A DNA stretch of 64,000 nucleotides, taken from contig JBAWZA010000011.1 in assembly GCA_037143335.1 (NCBI GenBank), positions 13,494 to 77,493 of the forward strand, in the 5' to 3' direction. The notes under the pieces were generated by a model. The model had not been told where the DNA came from. It saw only the letters and a list, made by a program, of their open reading frames with translations, and searched no databases. How positions within the stretch are numbered: the stretch's first letter is position 1; the number at the start of each line of letters is the position of its first letter. Both the position numbers and the translations under genes were made by a program. The DNA is from a bacterium (lineage in GTDB: Bacteria > Bacteroidota > Ignavibacteria > Palsa-1295). This document shows, piece after piece, positions 53,882-56,271 of the stretch.

Positions 53882-54211
53882 ATGGACGAACACGTACTAC
53901 ACTCGAGAGAGAGAGAGAGAGAGAGAGAGAGAAGAAAACCAGGCTATCCGAAGAATGATACGCCTTGGGACAAATTAGATTTCGAAGTTCAAGGTCAGTA
54001 TGGAAACCAATTCCGGTATCTCGCTGAAAGACTTCCTGATCTCACCCCGACAGAAATAAAGGTAGCTACGTTAATTAGAGAAGGATTTTCCACTGATGCA
54101 ATTTCTGGAATGCTTTGCGTCTCGCCAAATACAATTAAAACACATCGCAAGAGCATCCGCAAAAAATTGGGATTGACCTCGAATCTACAAACTTTCTTAA
54201 ATGGAGTTTAA
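53882..54211 (+). CDS. Small LuxR-type HTH transcriptional regulator carrying an N-terminal (GA)14-encoded RE-repeat
   Basis: 109 aa. The C-terminal LTPTEIKVATLIREGFSTDAISGMLCVSPNTIKTHRKSIRKKLGL is a LuxR/GerE HTH. Residues 9-18 (RERERERERR) are encoded by the dinucleotide repeat. Confidence 0.6.
   Translation: MDEHVLHSRERERERERRKPGYPKNDTPWDKLDFEVQGQYGNQFRYLAERLPDLTPTEIKVATLIREGFSTDAISGMLCVSPNTIKTHRKSIRKKLGLTSNLQTFLNGV
53905..53932. repeat. (GA)14 dinucleotide microsatellite inside the 5' coding region of the LuxR-type regulator
   Basis: 28 bp perfect GA repeat read directly from the sequence. Gain or loss of one unit shifts the reading frame. Confidence 0.9.
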
Positions 54212-54298
54212 AACAAAAAATACCCATTTCCTCATGCTATGGAAGCCCTAAAACCCTTGTATCTTTGCACCGTGTTAACAAACATTACTTAATTTGCC

Positions 54299-54955
54299 AT
54301 GACAACAAAAAACAGAGCATACTCTTTTTTTAAGACGATAGGAATTATTCTTCCATTACTACTCTTTATTTCTCAGGCAAGGGCACAATGCCCATCGATA
54401 CCATGCCCAAATCCTGGGAATTGTACTGGATGGTCATCTGTAACTGGAGTTCCAGTTCATATTTCTAGCGGGTGTGACCTCTATGTAAACTATTGTTATA
54501 GGACGGTACACAATTGGCCTACTACAGGTTTCGAAACACTCCAGGCTGTCATCACTGAAATTGATTCTGACGCTCATTGTGATGATGATATCACTACTGC
54601 AAGTTTTGTTGCAGAAGTGCAGTCTGCGATCTCTGTAGATGCTTCAACACATGCTGTTTCACCACCCCCATGTAACAACCAAGTTAGTGGTAGTTATAAG
54701 ATGGAATTACGAACCCCTGCATGTTTGAAGCGTGTAGCAACTTCATACAATCATTACGCCCTTGTGATGGCTTGTGAGAGTACTACTTCATTTTGCTTGA
54801 TGACATGTGATCTGTGCCATGACAGTAATGGTACAACGCTGAAACAAAATTGTACATTTACTCTTGAAGGTACACCACCATGTGATGATGCACCAACCAA
54901 GATGGGAGATTGGCCAACGGATGCATGCAGACACCCAGTATGTGGCACTTTCTAA
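54299..54955 (+). CDS. Cysteine-rich secreted protein (cassette 2, gene 1; paralogue of 41609..42298)
   Basis: 218 aa; signal peptide ending ARAQ. The mature region CPSIPCPNPGNC...GCDLYVNYCYRTVHNWP...CDDAPTKMGDWPTDACRHPVCG has cysteines co-linear with the cassette-1 protein. Confidence 0.6.
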   Translation: MTTKNRAYSFFKTIGIILPLLLFISQARAQCPSIPCPNPGNCTGWSSVTGVPVHISSGCDLYVNYCYRTVHNWPTTGFETLQAVITEIDSDAHCDDDITTASFVAEVQSAISVDASTHAVSPPPCNNQVSGSYKMELRTPACLKRVATSYNHYALVMACESTTSFCLMTCDLCHDSNGTTLKQNCTFTLEGTPPCDDAPTKMGDWPTDACRHPVCGTF

Positions 54956-54957
54956 TT

Positions 54958-56271
54958 ATGAAGTCTAAATTAAGGTTTTCTCTACTTGTTCTTGTGCTTC
55001 TTAGCTTAGGCTCGGAAGCACAAGGACAGGTTAAACCCTTTTGGACAACTCTTTCCGCGAAAGGGTTTACACAACGTCAGGGACTAACGGCATCCCTATT
55101 CAATGGCAAGATTTATACGATTGGTGGTGTCTTGTATCCTTGGTTTAAAGAAAATCTGGTAGAGGTATATAACCCTACCACTGACTTGTGGAGTACTCCT
55201 AAAACAATTGGCCGATGCCCACCACATTATGCTCATACTGCAAACGTTGTAGGTAGTAAGATTTACATCATTGGAGGTGTTCAAGGTCTGTCTATCTATG
55301 ACGATACAGTCTGGGTTTTTAATCCAATTGATAATAGTTGGAGTCTTGATACGATTATGGACGAAGGCAATGCGCCTCATCCTGGACTTATCAATTCAAC
55401 GTCATGTGTAATTGGCGATAGTATCTACGTCTTTGGTGGAGTAGATTTAGGTGGTAGCTTTAGTAGTACAGTTCAGATTTACGATACTAAGCGACACCGT
55501 TGGTCTTTCATGCCTCAGACCGCCGATTCAATGCGGACTGTAACAACTCCAAAATCTTTTCTCGTTGGGGATAAAATGTATGTTGTCGGCTTGCCTGGTA
55601 TAGCAAATGGCCAACCTGAAGATACAGCCTGCCATTGCACTGTTCAGGTTTATGATCCAGTAACGAATAGGTGGAGATGGCCTTCTACTGATACAATGCG
55701 TTTCCCGAGATTTGCATTCGTAGGAGAATCTTATACTACTCCAAAACATCAGACTCAAATACGTCTCATTGGCGGAATCAGTTATAATGGTGGGAATGAT
55801 CCACCGAAAACTGATACGTATGATACGTTATTCCGTAAATGGGGACAGGAACTTCCGGACGGTGAATTTACCGTTCGAATTGGAGCCGCATCATGTTTGA
55901 TCGGCGATAAAATTTATGTTATTGGTGGGGTCTTTGGTAGAGGTGCTACTGATACGAGCTTGAACCAAGTACTTACAATCCCACAACTGCAGAGTGTTGA
56001 AAATGGCTTTGATAAAATATTTTATTATAGCCGAATCTACCCCAACCCAGCAACAACGACTCTTAACATTGTTTCTGTAGAGGTTGGTACTCCGTTCAAG
56101 ATCCTTGATATATTGGGTAGAGAAGCAATGATAGGCAAGACATTAGATAATGCAACATTAACAGTTGACATATCGAATCTTTCAACAGGTTTTTATTATG
56201 TTCTTGTCGAGCGTGCGGATATGAAAGGTCAGTACTCTATCGCTGGCAAGCTTGCAGTCATTGGGAAGTAA
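54958..56271 (+). CDS. Kelch-repeat beta-propeller secreted protein with CHC motif and T9SS C-terminal sorting domain (cassette 2, gene 2; paralogue of 40347..41609)
   Basis: Start MKSKLRFSLLVLVLLSLG lies 2 nt after the upstream stop. Kelch blades are present, plus the EDTACHCTVQVYD motif. The C-terminus YPNPATTTLNIVSVEVG...YYVLVERADMKGQYSIAGKLAVIGK matches a Por tail pattern. Confidence 0.65.
   Translation: MKSKLRFSLLVLVLLSLGSEAQGQVKPFWTTLSAKGFTQRQGLTASLFNGKIYTIGGVLYPWFKENLVEVYNPTTDLWSTPKTIGRCPPHYAHTANVVGSKIYIIGGVQGLSIYDDTVWVFNPIDNSWSLDTIMDEGNAPHPGLINSTSCVIGDSIYVFGGVDLGGSFSSTVQIYDTKRHRWSFMPQTADSMRTVTTPKSFLVGDKMYVVGLPGIANGQPEDTACHCTVQVYDPVTNRWRWPSTDTMRFPRFAFVGESYTTPKHQTQIRLIGGISYNGGNDPPKTDTYDTLFRKWGQELPDGEFTVRIGAASCLIGDKIYVIGGVFGRGATDTSLNQVLTIPQLQSVENGFDKIFYYSRIYPNPATTTLNIVSVEVGTPFKILDILGREAMIGKTLDNATLTVDISNLSTGFYYVLVERADMKGQYSIAGKLAVIGK

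Follow-up and report, generated by a model that had tools for sequence, protein, structure and literature searches.

A 64-kb stretch of DNA, hereafter the window, from contig JBAWZA010000011.1 of a metagenome-assembled genome (MAG; coverage ~8.7x, ENA ERZ4222710) carries a small LuxR-type regulator gene with a long dinucleotide repeat near its 5' end, directly upstream of a pair of genes for secreted proteins, here designated cassette 2. The question raised by this locus is whether the repeat acts as a reversible switch of the regulator and, through it, of the neighbouring cassette. The genes form a three-gene block on the + strand, in which the regulator gene (53882..54211) is followed after 87 nucleotides (nt) by a gene for a cysteine-rich (Cys-rich) protein (54299..54955) and, after a further 2 nt, by a gene for a Kelch protein bearing a sorting domain of the type IX secretion system (T9SS; 54958..56271); the gene coordinates and both spacings given in an initial annotation of this DNA all held on re-reading of the sequence. 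On balance we consider it probable that the block consists of a dedicated small regulator and a secreted two-protein cassette, with expression of the regulator made stochastic and reversible by slippage of its (GA)14 tract.

The repeat is a perfect (GA)14 microsatellite of 28 nt (53905..53932, 100% matches), detected with Tandem Repeats Finder (TRF) and by a regular-expression search at the 5' end of the regulator open reading frame (ORF). Starting at the last base of codon 8 and ending with codon 17, it specifies RERERERER, or (RE)4R; the initial annotation was right about the tract and its gene, and its placement in codons 9-18 was about one codon out. Elsewhere in the 64 kb, dinucleotide runs reach five units at most, and no repeat passing the same thresholds was present in ~73 kb of DNA from six related Kapaibacterium genomes, while our own order-of-magnitude estimate for 14-unit dinucleotide runs in random DNA of 64 kb is ~1e-11. 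The (GA)14 tract is a genuine microsatellite, a class of repeat otherwise missing from this genome background.

The consequences of a change in tract length were determined by rebuilding the regulator gene in silico with 8 to 20 GA units and translating each version. Full-length regulators of 105-113 amino acids (aa) were obtained with 8, 11, 14, 17 and 20 units, i.e., only where the number of units is congruent with 2 modulo 3, and every other length within this range yielded a stub of 22-34 aa that terminates well before the helix-turn-helix (HTH) domain. ATG 53882 is the sole start codon in frame with the HTH, and in the shifted versions no ATG, GTG or TTG precedes the domain in its reading frame; re-initiation would therefore be unable to rescue the regulator. 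In-frame changes in length should in turn be tolerated, since a homologous regulator of 92 aa, encoded on metagenome contig L086, is without exactly the 19-aa segment that contains the repeat, and since confidence in the AlphaFold2 (AF2) model of the window regulator is lowest over aa 1-30. The geometry of the tract is that of a standard translational ON/OFF contingency locus, in which a change of one unit abolishes or restores the regulator.

The description of the regulator as a standalone LuxR/GerE HTH protein of 109 aa located before cassette 2, as initially annotated, was borne out by a match to the Pfam family GerE (PF00196) at aa 54-103, which scored 45 bits against a cutoff of 23.5. 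All NCBIfam matches concerned the C-terminal HTH of larger regulators, with scores below the respective cutoffs, and the sequence matches in the PDB were the HTH domains of EL222, NarL, VraR and VpsT. An N-terminal tail is followed in the AF2 model by a helix at aa 28-50 and HTH helices at aa 56-66, 71-78, 82-96 and 102-108. Neither a receiver nor an autoinducer-binding domain was found, and because the ~50 residues that precede the HTH match no domain in Pfam or NCBIfam, the protein is an HTH-only 'solo', being neither a quorum-sensing LuxR protein nor a response regulator. 'LuxR' here denotes the HTH fold only, with nothing in the protein pointing to a response to a quorum signal. GerE of Bacillus subtilis and other HTH-only members of the LuxR/FixJ/NarL family likewise consist essentially of just the four-helix GerE-type DNA-binding domain, although the window regulator differs from them by some 50 additional N-terminal residues, i.e., the repeat-encoded tail and one long helix, and its sequence identity to them is low.

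The first gene of cassette 2 encodes a secreted, presumably disulfide-rich, Cys-rich protein of 218 aa with a signal peptide that ends at an Ala-Gln boundary. No Pfam or NCBIfam model matched this protein, and it possesses no C-terminal sorting domain in spite of its signal peptide. A profile built from both paralogues present in the window returned 43 matches at E <= 1e-3 from 1.84 billion representative proteins, and an alignment of 23 family members revealed ten invariant cysteines and an invariant Ala-Gln at the end of the signal peptide. The latter agrees with the signal-peptidase I 'Q-rule' of Bacteroidota. The AF2 model of the Cys-rich protein is confident (pLDDT 84.9), though no relative was found among solved structures; a tblastn search with this protein against plasmids gave no match. 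Its partner, identified from its ORF and from Pfam and TIGR04183 matches, is a Kelch beta-propeller protein of 437 aa with a type A T9SS sorting domain, for which four Kelch_1 matches (1.3e-36), a Por_Secre_tail match of 38.7 bits (cutoff 27) and a match of 34.2 to TIGR04183, the type A sorting domain model (cutoff 23), were recorded. Its N terminus is hydrophobic ahead of an Ala-Gln boundary, and with both a sorting domain and a signal peptide it is a predicted cargo of the T9SS.

This pair was initially annotated as the second copy of its kind in the window, which agrees with the 45% identity that both of its members share with their counterparts in cassette 1 on the opposite strand. The latter consists of a gene for a Cys-rich paralogue of 229 aa (41609..42298, - strand) and one for a Kelch/T9SS paralogue (40347..41609, - strand; 420 aa as called in L088), the start of the Kelch gene overlapping the stop of the Cys-rich gene by 1 nt. 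Wherever flanking DNA was available for other members of the family, the Cys-rich gene was followed on the same strand by a gene for a secreted beta-propeller, which is of the Kelch type with a sorting domain in L083 and L084, and BNR/Sortilin-like in L086, L087 and the P0019 locus. The conserved unit is thus a Cys-rich protein with a propeller, the propeller being a predicted T9SS cargo wherever its C terminus is visible.

Whether the regulator belongs to this unit can be judged from what occupies its position elsewhere. L086 and L087 are two unrelated metagenome contigs whose Cys-rich proteins are ~30-36% identical to that of cassette 2, and in both of them the Cys-rich gene is directly preceded, on the same strand, by a gene for a GerE protein (92 aa in L086, at least 111 aa in L087), so that the order GerE, Cys-rich, beta-propeller recurs. 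Furthermore, both of these regulators align with the window regulator over the pre-HTH helix and the HTH itself. In the P0019 locus a 100-aa gene of no known family occupies the position of the regulator, and in L083 a divergently transcribed gene for a 69-aa XRE-type (HTH_3) protein (5670..5879, - strand) is found upstream of the Cys-rich gene in place of GerE, which suggests that regulators may have been replaced within the module family. No regulator gene lies beside cassette 1, and a candidate degraded LuxR gene upstream of that cassette was rejected, as tblastn and blastn found nothing beyond chance.

The surroundings of the block provide a further line of evidence. The PEPCK encoded in the window is 81-87% identical to that of Candidatus Kapaibacterium MAGs, and on this basis the DNA is placed in the Kapabacteria (Bacteroidota/FCB group), a placement with which the many T9SS sorting domains in the window agree. 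The regulator and cassette 2 are flanked on one side by a gene for a 626-aa outer-membrane-like protein (OMP626; 51832..53712) and on the other by PEPCK. In relative L008 the OMP626 homologue adjoins PEPCK with a gap of ~0.2 kb (9611..9819) and the junction is empty, while in L004 the junction (8567..9779) holds a different gene, of 373 aa and on the opposite strand. LuxR, Cys-rich and Kelch genes were found at this junction in none of the related Candidatus Kapaibacterium genomes examined, and because they are jointly absent, the regulator and cassette 2 represent one accessory block of ~3.3 kb. The OMP626-PEPCK junction (53713..57001 of the window) is a variable spot in Kapaibacterium genomes. 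GC content is 0.39-0.43 in both cassettes (40347..42298 and 53882..56271) against 0.45-0.49 in neighbouring housekeeping genes, which fits accessory or acquired DNA. Taken together, the adjacency of GerE in L086 and L087 and the joint absence from relatives support a functional link between regulator and cassette. The suggestion of the initial annotation that the regulator is dedicated to the cassette consequently gains ground from the comparison, with the qualification that the adjacency is not universal: L083 and cassette 1 differ, and for the cassette family as a whole the link is not obligatory.

The manner in which the regulator could act on cassette 2 was considered from the intergenic DNA. 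Upstream of the regulator, TATATTTG (53784..53791, + strand; context TTGTATATTTG) matches the Bacteroidota-type -7 box TAnnTTTG at 98 nt from the regulator ATG. A second perfect -7 box, TATCTTTG (54260..54267, + strand; context TTGTATCTTTG), lies within the 87-nt spacer that separates the regulator stop from the Cys-rich ATG (54212..54298, + strand), at 39 nt before that ATG, and the two perfect boxes share the context TTGTATNTTTG. Per unit length, TAnnTTTG occurs ~3 times as often in the intergenic DNA of the window as in its coding DNA, and a scan for sigma-70 consensus promoters performed no better than on shuffled sequence. Between regulator and cassette 2 no terminator-like hairpin was found, so that co-transcription would be possible; transcription of cassette 2 could start at its own promoter, arise from read-through, or combine the two.

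On the basis of these features a mechanism may be proposed. During replication, slipped-strand mispairing would add or remove GA units, and tract lengths not congruent with 14 modulo 3 would cause a frameshift and a stop after 22-34 residues, with loss of the DNA-binding domain. The population would as a result comprise interconverting regulator-ON and regulator-OFF cells. The regulator would probably act on a promoter in the 87-nt spacer before cassette 2, and in the OFF frames the loss of translation may also lower read-through transcription into the cassette; in either case, expression of the Cys-rich/Kelch pair would become a stochastic, heritable and reversible trait. We infer both that slippage occurs at a useful rate and that the cassette is the target of the regulator, and both activation and repression would be compatible with the scheme.

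Apart from (GA)14, the 64 kb contain a single long simple repeat, a C11 homopolymer (42458..42468, - strand; G11 on the + strand), which is located ~160 nt upstream of the ATG of cassette 1. Each of the two paralogous Cys-rich genes is therefore preceded, at a distance of less than 400 nt, by one of the two longest simple repeats of the window, an arrangement for which our own rough estimate of the chance probability is ~1e-4. A near-consensus -7 box, TTGTATATTCG, lies ~70 nt upstream of C11, and the length of the homopolymer is identical in the SPAdes and Logan assemblies. No convincing role for C11 as a promoter spacer was found, and a leader peptide running through it is unconvincing, the small ORFs at this site having only TTG or GTG starts. 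The earlier idea of a possible ON/OFF switching of the cassette fits both the frame arithmetic of the regulator and the presence of C11 upstream of the paralogous cassette. A bolder version would have each of the two paralogous T9SS-cargo cassettes of this free-living bacterium under its own hypermutable repeat, with (GA)14 acting in a trans-acting regulator and C11 in a promoter or leader, and this we regard as somewhat doubtful. If both repeats do switch, four combinatorial surface states of a previously undescribed secreted-protein module would result, for which attack by phages or predators would be the likely selective pressure.

In a second and independent assembly, the Logan k-mer assembly of SRR12676966, the same genes are present and the tract is not bridged: contig L002 ends in ...CACTC(GA)14, and the next contig, L001, begins with (GA)13AGAAAACC. 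Logan employs k = 31, which exceeds the 28 nt of the tract, and a homogeneous (GA)14 should therefore be traversable; breaks at the edges of the tract are what mixed lengths would produce. The break is a hint, and only a hint, of mixed tract lengths. When the regulator and the Cys-rich protein were used as queries in word-indexed homology searches, each recovered nothing but itself, and pattern scans of genome and metagenome contigs with the Cys-rich pair found no relatives; a scan of metagenome contigs with the LuxR alignment also gave nothing, the patterns that it chose having been poor.

Several observations weigh against a switch of the kind proposed, and some of them count in favour of an alternative. 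At ~8.7x coverage, stutter errors or thin coverage would also give the Logan contig break, and the two break points do not fit one simple mixture of alleles. Invertible promoters dominate the phase variation described for Bacteroidota, among which simple repeats are unusual (PMC11868660, together with general knowledge). No length variants were recovered, the gene occurring in one genome only among the public collections searched (its 90% cluster has a single member), and the repeat is missing from the regulators of L086 and L087, so that it is not a conserved feature of the module. The homologous regulators that do without it, the lack of length variants in the public data and the in-frame assembled consensus would all suit a tract that is simply a tolerated coding microsatellite, specifying a charged Arg-Glu tail, with no selected switching and with slippage mutants being purged. 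This explanation is unlikely in our view, as a 14-unit dinucleotide tract greatly exceeds what this region and its relatives show as background and, from general knowledge of repeat slippage, should be intrinsically unstable. An unselected, frameshift-prone tract would moreover be expected to decay by point interruptions, yet (GA)14 is perfect, and the one further long repeat of the window precedes the paralogous cassette. It is also conceivable that the assembled tract length is wrong or chimeric, the true gene being a frameshifted pseudogene or one with a shorter repeat, a concern that arises from the coverage of ~8.7x and from the failure of the second assembler to bridge the tract. Both Logan contig ends, however, independently show at least 13-14 GA units on the same unique flanks, and the in-frame reading gives a complete and significant GerE domain in an architecture shared by the homologues, which renders such an error very improbable.

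The remaining alternatives accept that the repeat has an effect and differ as to its target. The regulator might be switched and control itself or distant genes, its adjacency to cassette 2 then reflecting joint acquisition only. Several of the points against the proposed switch bear on this possibility: the perfect TAnnTTTG box of cassette 2 is a good promoter-like element that would allow expression of the cassette independently of the regulator, a search of the 87-nt spacer gave no operator-like inverted repeat or palindrome, and a shared operator upstream of both cassettes was considered and rejected, the only element common to them being a promoter-like TTGTATNTT[TC]G box. In addition, cassette 1 has no regulator gene beside it, and P0046, a small-LuxR homologue closely related to the window regulator, adjoins unrelated genes instead of a cassette, so that the small LuxR family extends beyond the cassette module. 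The order GerE, Cys-rich, propeller nevertheless recurs in the very distant contigs L086 and L087, and a chance adjacency would not persist that far, for which reason a different target is decidedly unlikely. Less probable still is that the tract acts mainly in cis, either by polar loss of read-through when out of frame or by length-dependent non-B DNA that impedes transcription. The missing terminator-like hairpin, which would permit co-transcription, is consistent with the former, and the latter finds a precedent in (GA)n·(TC)n tracts, which are known to form triplex DNA under supercoiling. Against action in cis, the promoter-like box of the cassette itself lies downstream of the tract, and L086 and L087 keep an intact HTH gene even though the repeat is lacking there, which speaks for the importance of the protein itself. 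Slippage that switches a regulator of the adjacent cassette is thus the explanation that we retain as probable.

Other features of the window were recorded in the course of the analysis. Rfam and tRNA scans of the whole 64 kb were empty. The 730 nt between the Kelch gene and PEPCK (56272..57001) are without a convincing gene, and contain a 93-aa ORF (56284..56565) with no Pfam match, an imperfect AATTACG repeat of 5.7 copies (56443..56482, TRF score 38) and a strong sigma-70-like match (11/12; 56540..56568); this stretch may be the remnant of an insertion event. Two ORFs of 1337 aa each (10097..14110, + strand, and 21171..25184, - strand) both end in T9SS-type tails. A recent duplication of these ORFs was considered and rejected, as they share ~23% identity over partial local alignments and their equal length is coincidental.

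The closest functional precedent for the proposed switch is rmpA of hypervirulent Klebsiella pneumoniae, a regulator of mucoidy with a LuxR-type DNA-binding domain that is phase-varied by a poly-G tract (bioRxiv 10.1101/2025.09.12.675794). In both cases a small regulator with a LuxR-type HTH contains a simple repeat in its coding sequence, and slippage truncates, or would truncate, the product before its DNA-binding domain; the output of rmpA is furthermore the ON/OFF control of a cell-surface phenotype that is encoded next to the regulator. The two differ in that rmpA carries a mononucleotide G10 tract in an inter-domain linker, whereas the HTH-only protein described here has a dinucleotide tract, (GA)14, at codons 8-17. 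Phylum, habitat and targets (capsule/mucoidy as opposed to T9SS cargo) differ as well, and switching of rmpA has been shown experimentally, while for the window locus we infer it.

With respect to the type and position of the repeat, oipA/hopH, sabA and hopZ of Helicobacter pylori offer a parallel, as these genes carry CT/GA repeats in their 5' coding regions and are classic translational ON/OFF contingency loci. The H. pylori loci and the window regulator have in common a dinucleotide repeat just after the start codon, with one repeat number in three being in frame. The H. pylori repeats are present in the surface-protein genes themselves, whereas the repeat reported here is in a trans-acting regulator one gene upstream, and a switch of this type would consequently be indirect and could control more than one target.

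Campylobacter jejuni likewise possesses phase-variable regulators that carry homopolymers, namely flgS/flgR. In Bordetella pertussis, bvgS is a phase-variable regulator subject to a poly-C frameshift (PMC11868660). What the window locus would share with these systems is a hypermutable tract in a regulator rather than in a structural gene, by which a regulon is switched, although theirs are two-component proteins with homopolymers in pathogens, and the present case concerns a stand-alone HTH protein with a dinucleotide repeat in an uncultured environmental lineage. Within the Bacteroidota, too, surface or secreted components are known to come under stochastic ON/OFF control, through the invertible promoters of Bacteroides (PMC11868660). 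The mechanism in Bacteroides is, however, site-specific recombination, and neither an invertase gene nor flanking inverted repeats were seen at the regulator/cassette 2 locus.

The class of mechanism is accordingly already known, and what is new is the host lineage, i.e., uncultured environmental Bacteroidota, the target module, and the association of each of two paralogous cassettes with a different repeat. To our knowledge, almost all known cases of repeat-driven phase variation are from host-adapted pathogens, the switches described in Bacteroidota are DNA inversions, and we know of no description of repeat-driven switching in an environmental Bacteroidota lineage. If verified, a repeat switch in a regulator of T9SS cargo would show that contingency loci also occur in an ecological and taxonomic setting that is new for them, and would provide a functional handle on a rare and unannotated Cys-rich/propeller module.

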